Source: a virus
Taxonomy: Duplodnaviria > Caudoviricetes
Reading direction: 5' to 3' (one strand)
IMG/VR virus record: IMGVR_UViG_3300003886_000003
Coordinates: 1-62,043 of that record
Length of the DNA stretch: 62,043 nucleotides
Of this stretch, positions 6,099 through 59,446 are shown piece after piece. Positions within the stretch are counted from its first letter, which is position 1. Every line of letters starts with the position of its first letter. Made by a program: the position numbers and the translations under genes. The notes below the pieces were generated by a model. It saw only the letters and a list, made by a program, of their open reading frames with translations, made no database searches and was not told the origin of the DNA.

Positions 6099-6285
6099 CA
6101 GCGCCTAGCCAGTGGCGATAGCGCCCTATTGTGTTGCCATTGGTATCACGGATAGGGAAGTCAGACTCCTGTTCAACCACACGATCAGCGATATCTCGCA
6201 GGACGTTGTAAATGCCCCCTTGTATGCCCCCGTCAGAATCTTCAAAGGCGGCGTTGTCAGTGTTGAATGTTATCACTACTTGCAT
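6091..6285 (-). CDS. Hypothetical early protein
   Basis: GGAG RBS; MQVVITFNTDNAAFED...IRDTNGNTIG, a common small phage protein type. Confidence 0.7.
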   Translation of the reverse strand: MQVVITFNTDNAAFEDSDGGIQGGIYNVLRDIADRVVEQESDFPIRDTNGNTIGRYRHWLGADE

Positions 6286-6298
6286 TGTGTTTTCTCCT

Positions 6299-6607
6299 TC
6301 ACCATTGGTAGGTTCTAAGTTCAGGTACTTCCACGCCATCCCGGTCAAGCACAAGGTAGGAGCAGCCGTATTTTACAGCCAGGTCTATCAGTGAGATAAA
6401 TCCGTTACTAAACCCCGCCCCATTGCAGGCAGGAGCAACAATGTCAGGTGTCATTTCTGCCGTCAGGAAGATAATGAAGCCGTATTCAAAATTGACGACA
6501 CGGCACAGATCAAAACTTTGTTCTGTTGTGTCTTTAAGATAGTCGTTATCGACTCGCGTGATATGGCAGGTATTAATGACCAGCGCTTTTTCTATTGGGA
6601 GTTTCAT
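6299..6607 (-). CDS. DUF5983-like protein
   Basis: NTCHIT, EYGFII, GCSYLVLDRDG...L..YQW pattern. Confidence 0.55.
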   Translation of the reverse strand: MKLPIEKALVINTCHITRVDNDYLKDTTEQSFDLCRVVNFEYGFIIFLTAEMTPDIVAPACNGAGFSNGFISLIDLAVKYGCSYLVLDRDGVEVPELRTYQW

Positions 6608-6609
6608 GT

Positions 6610-6789
6610 CTAGCAGTTCCCTGTGTTGTCGTAGATAGGGTTTTCAGAATCGCTATTCAGGATGATACGGCATATTGGCCCCGCCGGGTCTTCATGCAAG
6701 CAGGCAGGAGTCATTATATTAATTTCCAATATGCCATCCGTATCCGATTTGTGTACAGTAATTTTAAAGTCTTTTGATTTGATTGTCAT
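6610..6789 (-). CDS. Hypothetical early protein
   Basis: CAACACA leader plus GAGG RBS before ATG 6789. Confidence 0.6.
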   Translation of the reverse strand: MTIKSKDFKITVHKSDTDGILEINIMTPACLHEDPAGPICRIILNSDSENPIYDNTGNC

Positions 6790-6833
6790 GGTGTGTGCCT
6801 CTTTGTGTTGCTGACGAATTGAGTGTGCCAGGG

Positions 6834-7508
6834 TTAGAAACAGTCTCTGAGTGTCCATGGTTCATCAATATAGCCTTGTGCCTCATCGTGCAGTTTCTGA
6901 ATTTCTATATTTACTTTAAGGATGGTGGCACTTAGCGCGTCGCTTTTTTTAGTTGCCTCTTCCCGCAATTCAGCGGCGCGAGTTTTTGCGTCCTCTTTCA
7001 TGGTGTATTCACATTCTTTTTCGGCGTCGAATTGTGCCCGGCCATCGGCCTGTACTGCCGCTAGGTGCAAGCCTTCATCAATGCCAGTGGTGTCTGTGCC
7101 ACCTTTTTCTCCCAGCACATAATCAAAGTCAATAAGTGCAGCGCTTTCCGTGCCTGACCACGTGTCACAGTATCCGATAACGTATACCGGGCATCCCTTG
7201 CGTGCTGGTAGTTGCCACACAGCACCCCGGTAGGTGTCAGCGTTACCGGAATCATTGCGGTTATACCAGCCCTTGTGTCCAAGCCGTATAATTTCATCGG
7301 CGTACTTGACAAAGCGCAGCCCCGATTTTTCAGTGCTTTCAATCCATCGCTTTTTAGTGTCTTCAATTTGTGGATTGTAGACACTGGCAGGTTTATGGGA
7401 GGTAACCGCCTTGTGTTTTTGACGAATCAAAGATAGTACAGCGCAAGCGGTCAAGTGTGGAAGATGGGCGCGTGTTGCTTTAAAGCGGGTATATTTGCTT
7501 GTGGTCAT
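6834..7508 (-). CDS. Hypothetical early protein
   Basis: 224-aa ORF with CACAACACAGGA leader. Confidence 0.75.
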   Translation of the reverse strand: MTTSKYTRFKATRAHLPHLTACAVLSLIRQKHKAVTSHKPASVYNPQIEDTKKRWIESTEKSGLRFVKYADEIIRLGHKGWYNRNDSGNADTYRGAVWQLPARKGCPVYVIGYCDTWSGTESAALIDFDYVLGEKGGTDTTGIDEGLHLAAVQADGRAQFDAEKECEYTMKEDAKTRAAELREEATKKSDALSATILKVNIEIQKLHDEAQGYIDEPWTLRDCF

Positions 7509-7532
7509 GGTGTGCGTTTCCTGTGTTGTGTA

Positions 7533-7622
7533 AATCCAGACAGCGCCCCCAATGTTTACAGCCAGTCACAACACAAGCCATCGGGGGTACTGTTTCGGGC
7601 TGTGTGCCCTCATCAGTGGATT
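7533..7622 (-). ncRNA. Type I hammerhead ribozyme HH1
   Basis: AAUCCA-CUGAUGA-GGGC(ACACA)GCCC-GAAA-CAGUACCCCCGAUG...CAUUGGGGGCGCUG-UC^-UGGAUU; full core and three stems; predicted cut between 7539 and 7538. Confidence 0.9.
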
Positions 7623-7692
7623 AATCCTGTAGCGCGAATGCCAGTATTATAAAGGCAAATACTAGCAGTGAGTATGTTTCTACCCCTGACAT
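7621..7692 (-). CDS. 23-aa hydrophobic peptide
   Basis: GGGGGG RBS; MSGVETYSLLVFAFIILAFALQD; stop overlaps HH1 stem I. Confidence 0.45.
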   Translation of the reverse strand: MSGVETYSLLVFAFIILAFALQD

Positions 7693-7708
7693 TTGATTAC
7701 CCCCCGTG

Positions 7709-7867
7709 TTAGTTGTTCCAGTCTTTGCAGCATCGTGTTGATAACCATAATTCGCCGTCAAGGTATGCCTGCCTGTATTCATTTAACATTTTAGCCGCTT
7801 CCTGGCGGGTTCTATATTCGTCAATTGTTTCCGTGACACCCTGGTATTTATAATTTATGTATGTCAT
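7709..7867 (-). CDS. 52-aa early protein (not in ORF track)
   Basis: CACAACACA leader; MTYINYKYQGVTETIDEY...CCKDWNN. Confidence 0.7.
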   Translation of the reverse strand: MTYINYKYQGVTETIDEYRTRQEAAKMLNEYRQAYLDGELWLSTRCCKDWNN

Positions 7868-7896
7868 GTTTCAAACCCCGCTTGTGTTGTGGTTTA

Positions 7897-7956
7897 AGTC
7901 TATACAATGCCCATCAGTGGGGCATTGTTTCACGCTTACGCGATCATCAGTAGACT
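7897..7956 (-). ncRNA. Type I hammerhead ribozyme HH2
   Basis: AGUCUA-CUGAUGA-UCGC(GUAA)GCGU-GAAA-CAAUGCCC(CACUGAU)GGGCAUUG-UA^-UAGACU; cut between 7903 and 7902; first stem II pair is U-U. Confidence 0.82.
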
Positions 7957-8389
7957 AAGCGGCTTTTATTTCTCTTAGTGTTTTGGGTTCAAAATACAGG
8001 TCAATTTCTATGCTGTGTTCTATCAGTTCATCAATTGAGATATACCCCAGCTCCCCACCATGGCCAAGATTAGCAAACCCGAAAGCCTGGAACTGTTTGT
8101 CTTTGTCTAATGGGTGATCGTCGTCTGATCCTGCATCTTTTTCCAGTATGTACCAGTCCATACCACCATTAAAATAATGCAGGTGTACAATGGCAGCGTC
8201 GCCCTTGCCATCTTGTTGGCAGGTTTTCGGCATGTCGGCAATGAGCGCGGCCAGCTTTACCACCTTGTCAAAAAAATATTGTTTTTCTTCGCCGTGAAAG
8301 GTGGAAGTAATTGCAGCCAGTTGGCGCTTGCTGATAAAAGGTTTAAGCGTGTTGATTGCCTGGTGTGCGTCTTGTATTGTGGATTCCAT
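7955..8389 (-). CDS. DUF2958-like early protein
   Basis: HYF..GMDWYILE.D...AFGFANLG..GELGYISIDEL...IEIDLYFEPKTL pattern. Confidence 0.65.
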   Translation of the reverse strand: MESTIQDAHQAINTLKPFISKRQLAAITSTFHGEEKQYFFDKVVKLAALIADMPKTCQQDGKGDAAIVHLHYFNGGMDWYILEKDAGSDDDHPLDKDKQFQAFGFANLGHGGELGYISIDELIEHSIEIDLYFEPKTLREIKAA

Positions 8390-8414
8390 GTTAATACCTC
8401 TGTGTTGTGGTTTA

Positions 8415-8474
8415 AGTCTATACAATGCCCATCAGTGGGGCATTGTTTCACGCTTACGCGATCATCAGTAGACT
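8415..8474 (-). ncRNA. Type I hammerhead ribozyme HH3 (identical to HH2)
   Basis: Same sequence as HH2; cut between 8421 and 8420. Confidence 0.82.
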
Positions 8475-8763
8475 AAGCGGCTTTTTTGAGGTCGGTCGGT
8501 TCCTGGGTATGCCATTCGCGGGTTTTTGTGTGCATCCATTTGCGTGCGATGATTTGCAGACCGTTGCCAGTGTCAACGCCGAACGTGAAGACAGTGTAAG
8601 CGCCATCAGTTCGGCGTGTGGTTGTGTGTTCCACTAATACCTCTGAGTTTTTAGCGCTTGTGCCGACTCTCACAGTAACATCGGCTGTATCTTTCGCACC
8701 ATAAGATTTTCCGGTTTTATATATGCAGGAATTGATAACGTTCCATATTGGGTATGATTGCAT
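8473..8763 (-). CDS. Hypothetical early protein
   Basis: CACAACACAACACAAGGA leader; MQSYPIWNVINSCIYK. Confidence 0.7.
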   Translation of the reverse strand: MQSYPIWNVINSCIYKTGKSYGAKDTADVTVRVGTSAKNSEVLVEHTTTRRTDGAYTVFTFGVDTGNGLQIIARKWMHTKTREWHTQEPTDLKKAA

Positions 8764-8797
8764 GATTGTTTTTCCTTGTGTTGTGTTGTGGATGGTA

Positions 8798-8826
8798 ATT
8801 TTATCAGATTTATTTGATAACTGCAA
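8798..8826 (-). promoter_or_regulatory. Sigma70-type promoter with internal inverted repeat
   Basis: TTGCAG-17 nt-TAAAAT; TTATCA-N8-TGATAA (8801-8820) fills the spacer. Confidence 0.6.
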
Positions 8827-8841
8827 TGGATTGTTGACGGA

Positions 8842-9180
8842 CTAGCTTAATTCTATATCAAGTGTGTTGCAAATATCATAAGCCAGGAATTGCGCCGCGC
8901 TATCGTCGTCGCGTTCCAGTAGTCGCCGAACTAACACGGTCAGCGATTCCATCGATATGATACAGTTTAATCGGTTTACCCATAGCGAATCATCATGGGT
9001 ATAACTGTCACCTCTTTCTGGAACGTAACAGGCTTCCAGGTGCCCATCAATTCCTTGATTGACAGCCATCATTATTGTGTCGATGTCCTCTCCCACCATT
9101 GTCATGGTATAGGCTTCACTTTGTGATTCCGTAATTAACTTTTTTAATTCGTTTGACCAATCGCCGCTATAGTATTTCAT
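8842..9180 (-). CDS. Hypothetical acidic early protein
   Basis: CACAACACAGGAG leader. Confidence 0.7.
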   Translation of the reverse strand: MKYYSGDWSNELKKLITESQSEAYTMTMVGEDIDTIMMAVNQGIDGHLEACYVPERGDSYTHDDSLWVNRLNCIISMESLTVLVRRLLERDDDSAAQFLAYDICNTLDIELS

Positions 9181-9238
9181 GGTTAATACTCCTGTGTTGT
9201 GTGTTGTGTTTTAAAAAATTGCAGCCAGTAAGGTAGAA

Positions 9239-9835
9239 CTACCCCCACTGGTCGGCCATCGCCAACGCTATGCCCGAATATGTCTCGCTTCGTAGCTTCC
9301 ATCGGTCAGCCGATGGGCCTAGCTTGTTCTGTCCGCTATCTGTCTGATTCTCCCAACGCGGTAAGCCATTGACTACTCGCGGGGGTATTTCTTCAGTTGG
9401 TTTTAAGTTTGGCAAACCCTTCAACCATAGCCCGGTTCGCTTGCTTGCATTGTGTCCAAACTGATAGGGCTGTATATACTGGTCGGCTTTTCTGATTCGC
9501 GTACCGATACAGCCTACCGGATTTTCAATGCAGACTTTTGGAATATGGCTGGAAAGACGAATTATATCATGGACAAATTGCAGCGCTTTTTCTGTTTTTT
9601 CTTTTCGTCCTGGGGTGCGACCATTCCAGTGTAACCCGCTACTACATAGGTATGTACAGGGTGGATGGATGATCAGCATATCCCATTCATGACGAATCAT
9701 TACTGATAGAACATCATCAACAATATGATATTTTGAATTGTTAAAAAGCAAATCGCATGACCAAGATTTATGGCCAGTCAGTCTAAAGGCATCGCGGACA
9801 ATTCCGCTATGTTCACAACCTATTAATATTTTCAC
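9239..9835 (-). CDS. Short phage DNA cytosine methyltransferase-like protein
   Basis: LIGCEHSG (motif I-like), HPPCT (motif IV PC), IENP (motif VI), KRTGLW. Confidence 0.75.
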   Translation of the reverse strand: MKILIGCEHSGIVRDAFRLTGHKSWSCDLLFNNSKYHIVDDVLSVMIRHEWDMLIIHPPCTYLCSSGLHWNGRTPGRKEKTEKALQFVHDIIRLSSHIPKVCIENPVGCIGTRIRKADQYIQPYQFGHNASKRTGLWLKGLPNLKPTEEIPPRVVNGLPRWENQTDSGQNKLGPSADRWKLRSETYSGIALAMADQWG

Positions 9836-9921
9836 TGGTTAAATTGTCCCCATTAAATAAGCAAAGCCTAGCGAGTATGTCGCAAAAATAATAAACATTA
9901 CTATTTCATCAGCTTTCATTT

Positions 9922-10179
9922 TTATATCTCGCTATTAACAATTTCAGTTATCAGGCTGTCCAGCATGTAGCAATATTCAATACCCGCCGTTGCTTCAGTT
10001 TGGCGACGGATATCACTTGCCTGTCTGATTGCGCGTTCAGTCACATTAAATTTACCATTGATGGGGTATAGGTGGCTTTCATCCTGTTCACGGTAAAGCC
10101 TGTTAATGCAGGCAATGTGTGCGTTGCCGTTAAGGTGATCGGCTTTGTCTGCTATTTGTAATGGTGTCAATTGTTCCAT
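9922..10179 (-). CDS. Hypothetical early protein
   Basis: CACAACACAGGAG leader before ATG 10179. Confidence 0.65.
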   Translation of the reverse strand: MEQLTPLQIADKADHLNGNAHIACINRLYREQDESHLYPINGKFNVTERAIRQASDIRRQTEATAGIEYCYMLDSLITEIVNSEI

Positions 10180-10249
10180 GTTTAGCGCTCCTGTGTTGTG
10201 CTGTGTTTTAATACAATAGCCCCCTTGCACAAGGCTATCATTTAAAACT

Positions 10250-10636
10250 CTAGCGGCCCATGTGAGATATAATGGCTTGTGCTGAGCATTTATAGCCATG
10301 TTTGCGCGTATCTTCCAGCATAATGCAGTTTTTAGGCTTTGCGGTATCAAGACCAATAATGGTAAATACCTTGTTATTCATTTTAACAATTTTTCCCAGC
10401 CATTCAGGGTTCAATTGATAGCTTGCTGCATACAGTTTGAAGTCGTCGCCATGTCTCCCCAGCCCGGTTTTTCCCTTGGTCTGAAATTCTATGGTCATTT
10501 TATAATGACTGTCACCATAGCTCCCAGACTTACGCGTGATAGTAATACCGTGCTCAAGCGCCAACTGTGTTAATAACTCCATTGTATCATCGCCGATTCT
10601 GTTTGCTGTCCGCTTGTCAAAGTTTTCAATTGTCAT
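10250..10636 (-). CDS. Hypothetical early protein
   Basis: CACAACACAGGAG leader. Confidence 0.7.
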   Translation of the reverse strand: MTIENFDKRTANRIGDDTMELLTQLALEHGITITRKSGSYGDSHYKMTIEFQTKGKTGLGRHGDDFKLYAASYQLNPEWLGKIVKMNNKVFTIIGLDTAKPKNCIMLEDTRKHGYKCSAQAIISHMGR

Positions 10637-10663
10637 GGTTAATACTCCTGTGTTGTGTTGTGT

Positions 10664-11023
10664 TTAGAAATACCCCTGATCAGGGTCATGCAATGATTGA
10701 AATAACTCATCATCATCGTATTTTGCATCTTTATTAAATGATAGCTTTGGTAAAATTTCCATGTCCCCCGACCAAAATAGTTTTATACCCCAGTCGCGTT
10801 TTTCTTCCTCTGTCATATTGGTTGTATCTTCGCTGTACGGGGAGTTTTGCTCTGCTATCCAGACATAAATATCTACCCCGCCGAATATGCCGTAGCCATC
10901 ATAGGCAGGTTCACATATCGGCGCACCTTTCGGCTGTATAAGATATACCGGCTTGCTTTCCCCGGTATGCTTGTTTCGTATTGGTTCCTGTGTATCGGCT
11001 GTAGTAAATGAAAAGAATCCCAT
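10664..11023 (-). CDS. Hypothetical early protein
   Basis: AAGGAG RBS; MGFFSF...YDGYGIFGGVDIY...DPDQGYF. Confidence 0.7.
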   Translation of the reverse strand: MGFFSFTTADTQEPIRNKHTGESKPVYLIQPKGAPICEPAYDGYGIFGGVDIYVWIAEQNSPYSEDTTNMTEEEKRDWGIKLFWSGDMEILPKLSFNKDAKYDDDELFQSLHDPDQGYF

Positions 11024-11036
11024 GGTGATTGCTCCT

Positions 11037-11303
11037 TTAGAATTGTAATGATGTTTCGCTAGTGCGTAAGTATTCAGGAACAAGGCTTTTTATGTCTGAA
11101 AACATAGCATAATAGTCGATTCTTCCAATTGTGCCGTCGTCAAATTCGTACGCGTACAACCAATTATGATCGCTGATAAATTTATGGATTATTGCGGTAG
11201 AATATGCCCCCGCCATAAATAGATTGTTATTTGCTTTTTGCATGGCCGTGTTTGCTACTCCTTCAGCTATGCTTTCAATTTCTATTTGATAGTCTGTAGT
11301 CAT
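11037..11303 (-). CDS. Hypothetical early protein
   Basis: CAACACAGGGG leader. Confidence 0.6.
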   Translation of the reverse strand: MTTDYQIEIESIAEGVANTAMQKANNNLFMAGAYSTAIIHKFISDHNWLYAYEFDDGTIGRIDYYAMFSDIKSLVPEYLRTSETSLQF

Positions 11304-11404
11304 GACGTACCCCTGTGTTGTAACGTTTTGAATACAATAACAATAGCCTTGATTAGCACGTAAGCGGCTAAGCCTGTTATAAGGGGATATATAGAATAGT
11401 GCAT
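11300..11404 (-). CDS. 34-aa single-TM peptide, first gene of the early operon
   Basis: CACAACACAGGA leader; MHYSIYPLITGLAAYVLIKAIVIVFK; ATGA overlap with next gene. Confidence 0.5.
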   Translation of the reverse strand: MHYSIYPLITGLAAYVLIKAIVIVFKTLQHRGTS

Positions 11405-11437
11405 TGATATACTTCCTGTGTTGTGCTGTGAGTTTTG

Positions 11438-11886: not shown

Positions 11887-11950
11887 ATCTGATAAAAAAT
11901 TTTTATGCTATCCACAGCAAATCTGACAAAAATTTTTTATTATCCACAGC
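11887..11950 (+). repeat. Tandem imperfect ~31-bp repeats ending in DnaA-box-like 9-mers
   Basis: ATCTGA(T/C)AAAAA..TTTTAT..TATCCACAGC twice; TTATCCACA at 11940-11948. Confidence 0.6.
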
Positions 11951-49964: not shown

Positions 49965-52007
49965 TCAGTCATCCTTCTTGTATCGATGTGCTCTGAAACC
50001 ACCAGCAGTAATTGGTAGACCCTCAGCCCAGTCAGGCAGGTCGCACATCAGTTCTGCACTCTCATGCAGTGAGCCAAACCCTATCGGCGTTTCCATCATG
50101 ATTTCATCGTGTACTGTACCAATGATGGGGTAGCCTGCAGCTTCAAGGTTGAACATACCATGTACCATGATATCACGTGCTGTGCCCTGTACTGCGTTTT
50201 CAGTCAGCTTACCGCCATAGGTAGGCCACCGCCCCCAGCGTCTTGTGTAGGTATCAACACCGAGGTGTGTGAGCTTATCATTGTGGTCTATCTCCGGCTT
50301 GTAGTACGCGAGTCTGCGACCAGATGGCAGTCTCATGTACAGGAAGTCACCTTTAACTTTGAAGTACAGCTTATTCGTCTTATACATTTTGCCTGGGTTA
50401 GCAACCGCTGCAATTGCAGCTTCTTCAATGGCGTACCACATCCTTACAATCATCGGGTTATCTCTGCGCCAATCAGTTTTTATTTCCTCCCCGCGATCAA
50501 GATCAATATCAACCCCGTAGTTCCCGGCCATCTTCACAAACGCTTTGCCCCCACCTTGGAACCCAAGCGCCAGCTCACCAGTCTTACCCACAAAACGCTC
50601 ATCGGGGTGTGTCTGTTTCATGGTCATCAGGAAGACAAGATCAAGCGGTAAGTTGTACATCTTGGCCCCGGTATACTCGTACACCTTTCCGTGTGTGCGA
50701 AATATTTCCAGCTTGTCTTCCTGACCGGCAAGCCATGCAGTGATACGCCCTTCAATTGAACTATAATCCTGACACAGCAGATCGTATCCGGGCTTGGCAA
50801 TCAACATGCCGCGCACGGTACTTGCGAATATCCTCATCGGGTCTTCAGAGTACAGTGTGCGTATCCAGTCAAGACTCAGTTGCTTATAGGCTTCAATCGC
50901 TAGTTCAGGATCAGGTATAACCGGCCTGAACAAGTTCTGTAGCTGCACAATGAGTGATGACCATCGACCAGTACCCGCTGCATGATAGAGAAACATACCG
51001 CGCAATCGATCATCCAGCAAGCACACAGCGCGGCTCATGGCTTGGTACTTGGATGGCGCTTTCATGCTATGCAGCGCACGCATCTTGATTAACTTTTTGA
51101 CTGGCTTACTGGTGAGTTCAGGGTCTTTCAACGCATCGCGCATTGTCTCCGCTTGCAGGTTTGGTATATTGTAACCGCTGTCTCTGATCCATTCGGCTAC
51201 TTTTGCGGTTTGAGATATGTTGAACCCGCAAAGCTCAAATGAGTCCCTTTCCAGTACGCCCTTGTATTCTTCCAGCAGTTCTTCAACATAGCCAACGTAC
51301 TCAAGGTCAACCATCACCCCGCGATCATTGATTTTCTGATCCAGGTTCCATACCTGTCTTTCTTTTGGGGATAAGTCAGGAAGGTAATCATCCACACCAC
51401 GCTCAGCATAAACGTCATCAACACAATACTGATACAGCGCAATATACTTTTCAGGCGCGTTGTAGACTGTCCACCTATCTTCAGGAATTTTCTTGGTAGG
51501 TTTGCGTGGCTTGCAGAGTTGCAGCATTGCCATGCGCCCCTCTTCACTCTTGAGATGCCCACCGGGAATTGCTTTAGCACAACTGAATAAGTCACGCGGG
51601 AGTGAGTGTGCTGCAGCCTTGGCCGCTGTACAAACCCAGCGCTCTATTGGGATTTCAGGAAACCTGATACGCTTACCGGCACGAGCAGTTAATACTACAC
51701 GCTCGAATTGTGCATTGTGCGCACCCCACTCAACTGACTCATCTGCGCCAGCATCAACGATACACTGGGGTATTTCAGAGCCATGATAGAAATCACCACC
51801 GCGTTCTATATGGAACCACTCCATTGCCTCAACAATCTCAACAGGCAAGTTATCAAGTGGCACCCAGGACGATACATCCTCAGCGTTCATTGCAAAGCAC
51901 CCACAATGCACCAGCGTGCTCTCGTGCTCGGCATATCTAAAAACGCCGGTATGCTTTAAGTTAATGCGGGAGAACGACTCAATATCACAATGGAATCGAT
52001 CAGCCAT
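49965..52007 (-). CDS. DNA polymerase, family A
   Basis: Exo DIES, AHNAQFE, YCVDDV; TGRWSS...QLQN; motif A DYSSIE; motif B R...K...L...F; motif C VHDE. Confidence 0.95.
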   Translation of the reverse strand: MADRFHCDIESFSRINLKHTGVFRYAEHESTLVHCGCFAMNAEDVSSWVPLDNLPVEIVEAMEWFHIERGGDFYHGSEIPQCIVDAGADESVEWGAHNAQFERVVLTARAGKRIRFPEIPIERWVCTAAKAAAHSLPRDLFSCAKAIPGGHLKSEEGRMAMLQLCKPRKPTKKIPEDRWTVYNAPEKYIALYQYCVDDVYAERGVDDYLPDLSPKERQVWNLDQKINDRGVMVDLEYVGYVEELLEEYKGVLERDSFELCGFNISQTAKVAEWIRDSGYNIPNLQAETMRDALKDPELTSKPVKKLIKMRALHSMKAPSKYQAMSRAVCLLDDRLRGMFLYHAAGTGRWSSLIVQLQNLFRPVIPDPELAIEAYKQLSLDWIRTLYSEDPMRIFASTVRGMLIAKPGYDLLCQDYSSIEGRITAWLAGQEDKLEIFRTHGKVYEYTGAKMYNLPLDLVFLMTMKQTHPDERFVGKTGELALGFQGGGKAFVKMAGNYGVDIDLDRGEEIKTDWRRDNPMIVRMWYAIEEAAIAAVANPGKMYKTNKLYFKVKGDFLYMRLPSGRRLAYYKPEIDHNDKLTHLGVDTYTRRWGRWPTYGGKLTENAVQGTARDIMVHGMFNLEAAGYPIIGTVHDEIMMETPIGFGSLHESAELMCDLPDWAEGLPITAGGFRAHRYKKDD

Positions 52008-58658: not shown

Positions 58659-58897
58659 TATTCACCGTCCCTTATATAGTCATCAACTTCCTGCTTGTCA
58701 GTGCCGTACAGAATATAGTATGGATCGACTGGCGTGTTTTCATCAGGGACAGGCTGACCGTAATTGCCATCATATTCACACTCATAAGCAGTGCAATAGA
58801 ACTCAAGAAATTCTTCAGCGTTGGACCGCTCATCAGACTCAGCGGCATATAGTGGGAAGGAAAGTAGCAGTGTTATTAATAGTGCTAGTTTTAGCAT
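58658..58897 (-). CDS. Small secreted acidic protein
   Basis: GAGGA RBS; signal peptide MLKLALLITLLLSFPLYA. Confidence 0.6.
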   Translation of the reverse strand: MLKLALLITLLLSFPLYAAESDERSNAEEFLEFYCTAYECEYDGNYGQPVPDENTPVDPYYILYGTDKQEVDDYIRDGE

Positions 58898-58919
58898 CAG
58901 CGTCATCCTCGTTAGCATT

Positions 58920-58947
58920 AAAAGAATGGCCCCTTTCGAGGCCATCC
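58920..58947 (-). terminator. Intrinsic terminator of the candidate sRNA
   Basis: GGAUGGCCUC-GAAA-GGGGCCAUUC-UUUU. Confidence 0.7.
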
Positions 58948-59038
58948 TGACCAAAGCACAAACCCTCACAGGGAGTTTTTGCACTGTACCGGGACACAAC
59001 CCCCGGCATTTACACAACACATGGAAACACCATGAGCC
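58920..59038 (-). ncRNA. Candidate trans-acting antisense sRNA (~120 nt)
   Basis: Lies between promoter and terminator; several hairpins; seed UGUGUUGUGUAAAU complementary to early-gene leaders. Confidence 0.65.
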
Positions 59039-59041
59039 GTG

Positions 59042-59071
59042 ATCATATTATAAAAATACTTTTCATGTCAA
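59042..59071 (-). promoter_or_regulatory. Sigma70-type promoter
   Basis: TTGACA (59071-59066), 18-nt spacer, TATGAT (59047-59042). Confidence 0.7.
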
Positions 59072-59128
59072 ATAAACTTTGATAGTATGCCCTCTTGATA
59101 TATGTGATAAATAACTTGAGGAACCAAT

Positions 59129-59446
59129 GTGGACCTATTCAAGCCATTAACCAAGAAGCAAGAGCGCACTTATGATAGAACAATCAATATTATACGTGAA
59201 GAAGTTGGCTCATATCAAAAAATCGCCACGACTGCTTTTTCTATAACAGGATTGCACATATCCGGTCAGACAGTGCATGTATGGTTCATTGAGCGAAGGA
59301 TTCCTGAGAAGTATGCAGTAATTTTTTGCAGCATGGTGCCGGGCAAGGTGGACTTTATGGATTTGTGCCCCTGGCTCTTGCCGGTGTTCAATGCTTGGCA
59401 ACAGGAAAAGTTAAATAGTGGGGCCACAAACGGCTGGGATAAGTAG
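59129..59446 (+). CDS. Cro/CI-like HTH regulator
   Basis: ISGQTVHVW...RIP...DLCP pattern; divergent from the replication arm. Confidence 0.6.
   Translation: MDLFKPLTKKQERTYDRTINIIREEVGSYQKIATTAFSITGLHISGQTVHVWFIERRIPEKYAVIFCSMVPGKVDFMDLCPWLLPVFNAWQQEKLNSGATNGWDK

Follow-up and report, generated by a model that had tools for sequence, protein, structure and literature searches.

The virus record IMGVR_UViG_3300003886_000003 is a complete phage genome of 62,043 bp with direct terminal repeats, and its full length is referred to here as the window. Structural genes occupy the plus strand from ~12 kb onward, and the minus strand carries a dense early-type operon from ~11.48 kb down to ~2 kb, in which PHROG matches are mostly of 'unknown function', together with one DNA methyltransferase. 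Within a stretch of ~1 kb in this operon lie three hammerhead ribozyme motifs (HH1, HH2 and HH3), each between a stop codon and the next ribosome binding site (RBS). The present analysis concerns HH1, which precedes the gene of a 224-aa protein and whose stem III loop contains a stretch complementary to the leader of that gene, referred to here as the anti-leader. This leader is one of a family: a CA-rich leader (CACAACACA, then the GG of the Shine-Dalgarno sequence, SD) precedes at least 12 genes of the operon. The 9-mer CACAACACA has 11 exact minus-strand copies, confined to 7522-11425, and every one is directly followed by an SD (GGAG or GGA) and a start codon; the shorter motif CAACACA occurs 28 times in the window where 14.4 are expected.

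HH1 has the features of a hammerhead, namely the CUGANGA and GAAA boxes, three helices, an A15.1-U16.1 pair and a UH triplet. The unconstrained minimum free energy (MFE) structure given by RNAfold for 7626-7500 is exactly this hammerhead fold, with all three helices (-35.9 kcal/mol), and the core-box pattern of HH1 had 0 matches in 100 shuffles. The looser pattern CTGANGA-N(6-30)-GAAA matches the minus strand 11 times against 2.95 expected, with three of the matches at 7616-7593, 7950-7928 and 8468-8446, and a stricter type I pattern returns precisely HH1, HH2 and HH3, with none on the other strand or in a reversed-pattern control. With regard to Rfam, the hammerhead models gave 0 matches at the gathering score across the whole window; Hammerhead_3 produced partial matches only (15.7 bits with E 6.7 and 15.2 bits with E 9.2, where the gathering score is 48.5), and HH1 was not reported by the type I model in a low-threshold search. 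Our own class covariance model, R1, was built from 63 members and scores HH1 at 20.0 bits (E 1.5e-5), skipping stem III and misplacing the 3' strand of stem I at 7582-7575; only the 5' half of HH1 is placed correctly because the model cannot span the insertion in stem III.

HH2 and HH3 are recovered by R1 at full length with correct ends (17.1 bits, E 1.5e-4 each), and both have a GUAA loop II and, adjoining the core, a U-U at position 10.1-11.1. They belong to one duplicated cassette of ~85 nt (7897-7967 and 8415-8485, minus strand), which includes the last codons of the upstream genes (K A A stop) and the first 10 nt of the leader. A weak R1 match at 8578-8615 (minus strand, 14.3 bits), in a coding region, has a stem and CUGAUG with no GAAA box seen, and is probably no ribozyme. 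Clusters of hammerheads flanking prophage genes have already been described by Perreault et al. 2011 (PMC3088659), and the ribozymes of this operon are therefore, as such, of a known kind; they share with the phage hammerheads in that account the core boxes, the three stems and a GUC or GUA triplet.

Table 1. Features of the HH1 region and of the second locus near 59 kb (positions in the window)
Feature	Position	Strand	Basis
HH1, type I hammerhead, stem I to stem I	7533..7622	minus	pattern and parse; MFE is the hammerhead fold
HH1 stem I, 6 bp	AAUCCA 7622-7617 / UGGAUU 7538-7533	minus	direct parse
HH1 core box CUGAUGA	7610..7616	minus	sequence and pattern
HH1 stem II GGGC/GCCC, 4 bp, loop II ACACA 7605-7601	7597..7609	minus	sequence
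HH1 GAAA box	7596-7593	minus	sequence and pattern
HH1 stem III, 52-nt hairpin (5 bp, A-C mismatch, 9 bp, 24-nt apical loop)	7541..7592	minus	RNAfold
HH1 predicted cleavage site, GUC (7541-7539), between C7539 and U7538	7538..7539	minus	H17 position in parse
Anti-leader 12-mer GCUUGUGUUGUG in HH1 stem III loop	7567..7578	minus	sequence, duplex energies, shuffles, inverted repeat
Cis (downstream) leader CACAACACAGG, including first two G of SD	7520..7530	minus	sequence, duplex energy
Downstream gene, start codon 7508-7506	6834-7508	minus	
HH2 leader CACAACACAAGC, 5' end of the 364-nt HH2-HH1 product	7880..7891	minus	perfect 12-nt complement of 7578-7567
HH2, type I hammerhead, predicted cut after A7903	7897..7956	minus	pattern, parse, class model R1
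HH3, duplicate of HH2, identical motif	8415..8474	minus	pattern, class model R1
52-aa open reading frame (ORF) on the HH2-HH1 product	7709..7867	minus	ORF list
23-aa hydrophobic ORF MSGVETYSLLVFAFIILAFALQD, SD GGGGGG 7706-7701	7621..7691	minus	sequence
ORFs overlapping HH1	7455-7652 and 7499-7624	plus	ORF list
Small RNA (sRNA) candidate with 9-mer UGUGUUGUG (59021-59013)	58920..59037	minus	promoter-like site, fold, terminator-like hairpin

A first-pass annotation of this DNA had read UUGUGUUGUG (7576-7567) in the stem III loop as complementary to the leader CACAACACAG (7530-7521) just 3' of the cleavage site. This holds at all 10 positions, with 9 Watson-Crick pairs and a U7576-G7521 wobble, and C7577-G7520 adds an 11th pair; the placement is also right, as the leader starts 8 nt past the HH1 cut. 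The same annotation had given loop II as ACACA, which is confirmed between GGGC and GCCC. Kissing between loop II and loop III in the active fold was considered and rejected on geometrical reasoning, since the pentaloop on the 4-bp stem II would face the far end of a ~15-layer stem III.

In the MFE structure the anti-leader lies apically in stem III. The duplex between the HH1 loop and the cis leader, 11 pairs long, has a predicted energy of -16.9 kcal/mol, and opening costs of 3.5 and 0.9 kcal/mol for loop and leader leave a net of about -12.5. Against 13 leader sites the loop pairs at -14.5 to -21.3 kcal/mol, and at a 14th CAACACA site (8869, within an ORF) at -12.8 kcal/mol. Once opening costs are taken into account, pairing amounts to about -7 to -15 kcal/mol for 9 of the 12 leaders; for three leader targets the opening costs came out too high because a stem III base was counted. 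The strongest partner is the leader behind HH2, where GCUUGUGUUGUG (7578-7567) and CACAACACAAGC (7891-7880) form 12/12 Watson-Crick pairs at -21.3 kcal/mol, with 301 nt between the arms.

Several comparisons indicate that this match is not random. In composition-preserving shuffles of the 24-nt loop, 1 in 3000 attained the observed energy with the cis leader (-16.9), and the same 1/3000 was obtained with the HH2 leader (-21.3) and with the energy averaged across 12 leaders (-16.8). When 25-nt windows taken at every third position of the whole minus strand were paired with the 12 leaders (genome mean -4.9, standard deviation 2.0), the HH1 loop ranked first of 20,673 windows, at a mean of -16.85. 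The 12-nt length of the repeat is unremarkable, because three perfect inverted repeats of at least 12 nt with arms at most 400 nt apart occur in the genome, this one included; its significance lies in the target of the match and in its position. The complementarity, its exposure in the apical loop and its favourable energies are shown here by calculation on a single genome, and so is its departure from chance, which concerns what is matched and not the length alone. Two perfect 13-nt inverted repeats are also present in the genome, at 11892-11940 and 50627-50724; one is A/T-only and lies between the divergent early and late regions, and the other has 72 nt between its arms.

The core of the anti-leader recurs once. 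The 9-mer UGUGUUGUG has two exact copies on the minus strand, at 7575-7567 and 59021-59013, and the second-ranked window of the anti-leader scan, 59031-59010, falls within an sRNA candidate that holds the second copy. This candidate has a promoter-like site (TTGACA, 18 nt, TATGAT; 11/12 positions), a structured RNA of ~115 nt with three hairpins and a fold z of -4.65, and a 3' end formed by a G+C-rich terminator-like hairpin and a U-tract. The 9-mer lies between hairpins, and a second GU-rich stretch, GUUGUGU, lies in a hairpin loop. No Rfam family matched the candidate. A small ORF with a hydrophobic start follows it, at 58897. A common origin of HH1 stem III and the sRNA candidate was tested and rejected: with the 9-mer left out, 1837 of 2000 shuffles did equally well, and with it counted 160 of 2000 still did, the MAFFT alignment having overstated the likeness. 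As there is no significant similarity beyond the 9-mer, the two copies are taken to be independent.

The peculiarity of HH1 becomes apparent when it is set beside other phage hammerheads. The shared core pattern was found in at least 119 stretches of viral contigs, and across all the loci gathered 144 type I hammerheads could be parsed, of which 109 are unique. HH1 follows this sample in its 6-bp stem I (98/109) and its 13-nt stem II (99/109), and its first ATG, 30 nt past the cut, compares with mostly 22-29 nt in the sample. Stem III is 12 or 14 nt long in 101 of the 144, and the 52 nt of HH1 are the longest of all. Loop II is ACACA in HH1 only (1/109 unique), UNANU-type loops being dominant, and the flanks of stem I are UU and UA in HH1 and NA and AA in the sampled phage hammerheads. 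Unlike the typical phage class, HH1 has a loop that is antisense to the leader of its own operon: it is the sole sampled hammerhead with at least 9 Watson-Crick complements in stem III to its own downstream region, the next-best, at locus L252, having 5 Watson-Crick pairs, or 10 with wobbles. The match falls precisely on the exposed loop, inside an insertion of 32 nt that none of the sampled relatives has. Being unique to HH1 among the sampled hammerheads, the anti-leader is an add-on of this phage and not part of the ribozyme architecture.

The leader, in turn, seems to be part of a wider arrangement. A CA motif lies within 30 nt downstream of the cut in 48 of the 144 parsed hammerheads, and in another phage contig, L116 (59% G+C), AACACAACAGGAGC...AUG comes immediately after the type I hammerheads. 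The module of hammerhead, CA-rich leader, SD and start codon thus recurs in unrelated phage contigs, which favours a role of the leader at the level of RNA or translation. The L116 hammerheads (6514-6856 and 7629-8006, minus strand), which Rfam models did not report at E up to 0.1, and ~75 IMG/VR loci (L177-L294) form a large and uniform phage type I class: stem I has 6 bp, stem II has 4 bp and a UNANU loop, the short stem III is closed by a tetraloop, GUC stands at the cut, and the start codon 22-29 nt past it is frequently preceded by a CA-rich leader. No same-strand complement of the leader occurs in the 21-kb record to which L116 belongs.

A precedent for the pairing of GU-rich loops with CA-rich leaders is offered by the sRNA GcvB. 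In this sRNA the R1 region, GU-rich and unstructured, pairs with CA-rich repeats that lie within or adjoin the RBS of many mRNAs, and the ACA motifs at its targets are translation enhancers whose silencing is central to the regulation (Yang et al. 2014, PMC3879156). The phage leaders hold three overlapping ACA motifs adjoining the SD, and the GU-rich HH1 loop likewise pairs in silico with CA-rich elements next to several SDs; moreover, the loop and the R1 region of E. coli GcvB have UUGUGUUGU in common, a 9-nt identity. The two systems also differ. The GcvB seed lies in an unstructured stretch of an sRNA that ends in a terminator, whereas the HH1 seed lies in a hairpin loop of a ribozyme; unlike GcvB, the RNA that bears HH1 would be made by the predicted self-cleavage of an mRNA and its targets would be the early genes of the phage itself. 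A GcvB homologue was ruled out: the Rfam model RF00022 had no match in the phage, with the E. coli control detected, and at E up to 10 it had none in 6700-8300 or 58800-59200. In silico, E. coli GcvB R1 pairs with the early leaders (6130-11425, minus strand) at -14 to -24 kcal/mol; if the host has a GcvB-like sRNA, the phage early genes would be natural targets.

We therefore read the HH1 loop as an anti-enhancer, given that GcvB R1 silences ACA enhancers and that the leaders hold ACA motifs next to the SD. By this analogy, and with a probability that we put at roughly 0.4, the loop would be a GU-rich antisense element that silences CA-rich translation enhancers and is kept on the upstream product of cleavage. 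HH1 would be an intergenic phage type I hammerhead with a lineage-specific 52-nt stem III that displays GCUUGUGUUGUG. The 12-mer would pair with a leader at about positions -22 to -12, covering the ACA motifs and the first bases of the SD, and this pairing would lower translation initiation. As the element lies 5' of the cut, it would stay with the upstream product, so that self-cleavage would leave it on the 364-nt HH2-HH1 RNA, whose 3' end would be the folded ribozyme. The best partner would be the leader at the product's own 5' end (12/12), followed by other early leaders, including the downstream one (11 bp), and the element could fold back on the message that carries it, act in trans on the operon, or do both. 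We infer ribozyme cutting, pairing in the cell, repression and the split between cis and trans action.

The layout of the 364-nt product is compatible with a fold-back. Its predicted nested fold contains the helix of leader and anti-leader, with a summed pair probability of at least 0.95 per base and an unpaired probability of at most 0.05 for each base of the HH2 leader. In hok-type toxin mRNAs, a 3'-terminal element pairs with the 5' translation region in fold-back inhibition, and sRNAs can derive from the 3' ends of mRNAs. The HH2-HH1 product resembles hok-type mRNAs in this layout and in carrying a very small hydrophobic ORF (23 aa); its 3' end would be set by a ribozyme, unlike that of hok-type and 3'-derived RNAs, which is set by a terminator or an RNase. 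The 52-aa ORF that it also carries had no PHROG match.

The first-pass annotation had proposed three roles for the complementarity: a second seed-bearing RNA acting in trans on other leaders, a cis switch masking the downstream enhancer until cleavage, and an alternative pairing that tunes cleavage. The first fares best, being consistent with the net energies for 9 of the 12 leaders, with the sRNA-like unit that holds the second copy and with the GcvB precedent; the mask fares poorly, and none of the three is backed by covariation.

A number of observations weigh against the anti-enhancer reading. No conservation or covariation stands behind the anti-leader, and no close phage relative was found. 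A blastn search against phages gave a sole match, unrelated and 147 nt long. The 224-aa downstream protein had no relatives among viral contigs or in the phage collection and five homologues in the protein database, all at 49% identity or less, and six metagenome loci at 27-41% identity contained no hammerhead by regex scan. The exact HH1 and HH2 cores had 0 matches in viral contigs. Among 45 loci of TerL relatives (~34-77% identity), no hammerhead was found in the examined flanks and no CA leader, and five whole records of TerL relatives, scanned for CTGATGA cores only, gave one match. A TerL scan of genome contigs returned two distant matches in metagenome-assembled genomes, with no clue to the host, and a 144-aa protein matched only a domain within a large Xanthomonas phage Rb1 protein. 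Furthermore, the remaining 108 unique hammerheads in the sample all lack an anti-leader, and 18 other locus strands with at least three hammerheads (partial contigs) have no leader complement inside the ribozyme. The 12-mer is itself partly, weakly paired within the loop in the MFE structure, which is where the 3.5 kcal/mol of its opening cost arises, and the enhancer role of the leader is argued by analogy only. Finally, candidates with a 10.1-11.1 mismatch such as the U-U of HH2 were discarded by Perreault et al. 2011 unless activity was measurable (PMC3088659), and the 364-nt product may therefore form inefficiently.

The same absence of relatives sustains the most serious rival, in which the match has no function at all and is either a chance complement or a neutral inverted copy of a nearby leader, arising for instance by template switching in replication and tolerated in the variable stem III loop. 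An anti-leader that is unique among 109 unique related hammerheads, with no relatives to show selection, is what this rival would predict; the three perfect inverted repeats of at least 12 nt within 400 nt, which also count against the anti-enhancer reading, compare with ~1.3 expected by an arithmetic estimate, and the leader matched 12/12 is the closest one upstream, which fits a recent copy. The 1/3000 shuffles and the rank of the loop as top window of its strand speak against it, as do the second-ranked window, which is an independent sRNA-like unit with the same 9-mer, and the placement of the match, exactly in the exposed loop and within an insertion absent from the sampled relatives. On balance we regard a functionless origin as somewhat unlikely, and as a serious rival.

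A cis mask, with the loop keeping the leader and SD of gene 6834-7508 paired up to the moment of HH1 cleavage and the message released thereafter, is decidedly less probable. The 11 bp with a leader 8 nt past the cut do cover the SD bases G7521 and G7520, and engineered ribozymes that sequester the SD control translation in bacteria (Felletti et al. 2016, PMC5052635); HH1 is like those designs in being a 5' untranslated region ribozyme with a sequence complementary to the ribosome binding region. In those designs, however, the SD lies in a ribozyme stem that falls apart after the cut, whereas the HH1 complement lies in the closed loop of stem III and would stay paired. Cutting would not free the mask, because the mask is not part of stem I: the duplex (-16.9 kcal/mol, about -12.5 net) outlasts the cut and by far exceeds the 6-bp A/U-rich stem I in strength. 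Once the helix between loop and downstream leader is included, the best nested fold is 6.3 kcal/mol worse than the hammerhead (-29.6 against -35.9), the 2-nt linker after stem I would make coexistence of the full duplex with the active fold doubtful, and the upstream leader fits better (12 Watson-Crick pairs against 9 plus the wobble plus 1). The pseudoknots described in PMC3088659 join stems I and II, whereas here the complement runs from loop III to the tail.

Equally improbable, in our estimate, is a tuning of cleavage that senses translation, in which the leader of the 52-aa ORF and the G-rich SD of the 23-aa ORF, when both are free of ribosomes, pair with the loop and with the stem III strand CCCCC, so that HH1 misfolds and cuts less, the same pairing closing the product after the cut. 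Locally the alternative pairing is weak, as the energies just given indicate, but a long-range fold exists. In the predicted MFE structure the G-run SD of the 23-aa ORF pairs with the C-run 7586-7582 of stem III, replacing the GGGGG strand; this long-range nested fold beats the one in which HH1 is enforced by 5.7 kcal/mol in the cleaved product (-93.8 against -88.1) and by 8.1 kcal/mol in the uncut precursor (-106.4 against -98.3), with both long-range helices present, and stem I of HH1 overlaps the 23-aa ORF at its stop codon. Yet shuffled upstream sequences break stem III in 66 of 200 cases (cleaved) and 54 of 200 (uncleaved), and when only the leader is scrambled stem III stays intact in no more than 4 of 50 trials; the predicted misfold is thus not out of the ordinary, and the anti-leader does not account for it. 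Nested folds of 364-433 nt are moreover unreliable, and a pseudoknot that keeps stem III lies outside them.

The remaining alternative, that CACAACACA is an orientation-independent DNA motif (a protein binding site or promoter element) of which the HH1 copy is another instance, is very improbable, since no promoter-like site was found in 7533-7622 on either strand, the 11 leader copies lie on one strand, each directly 5' of an SD, and similar CA leaders stand behind hammerheads in unrelated phages of differing G+C.

Returning to the anti-enhancer reading, a bolder form of it can be considered, unlikely as it is at present. HH1 would then be dual-purpose, at once a self-cleaving ribozyme and the body of a riboregulator, which together with the sRNA that shares its 9-mer would shut down translation of the whole early regulon of CA-leader genes. 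The regulator, on this speculative account, would be an excised structured RNA with a 5'-OH from HH2, a 2',3'-cyclic phosphate at HH1 and a GcvB-like seed loop. If true, this would amount to a timed self-silencing of the early genes, and the regulator might also reach host mRNAs with CA-rich enhancers.

What is new here is a hammerhead whose seed-like loop is directed at the leader that genes of its own operon have in common, together with a second RNA that carries the same seed; searches of the open-access literature turned up no natural hammerhead in which a seed-like loop is complementary to a leader. The purpose of self-cleaving ribozymes in bacteria and phages still needs work, according to a 2019 review (PMC6765202). 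The dual-purpose form, if true, would give a bacterial or phage hammerhead a concrete role beyond the mere cutting of an operon, and HH1 allows one to ask whether a ribozyme can serve both as the scaffold of a regulator and as the maker of its 3' end.
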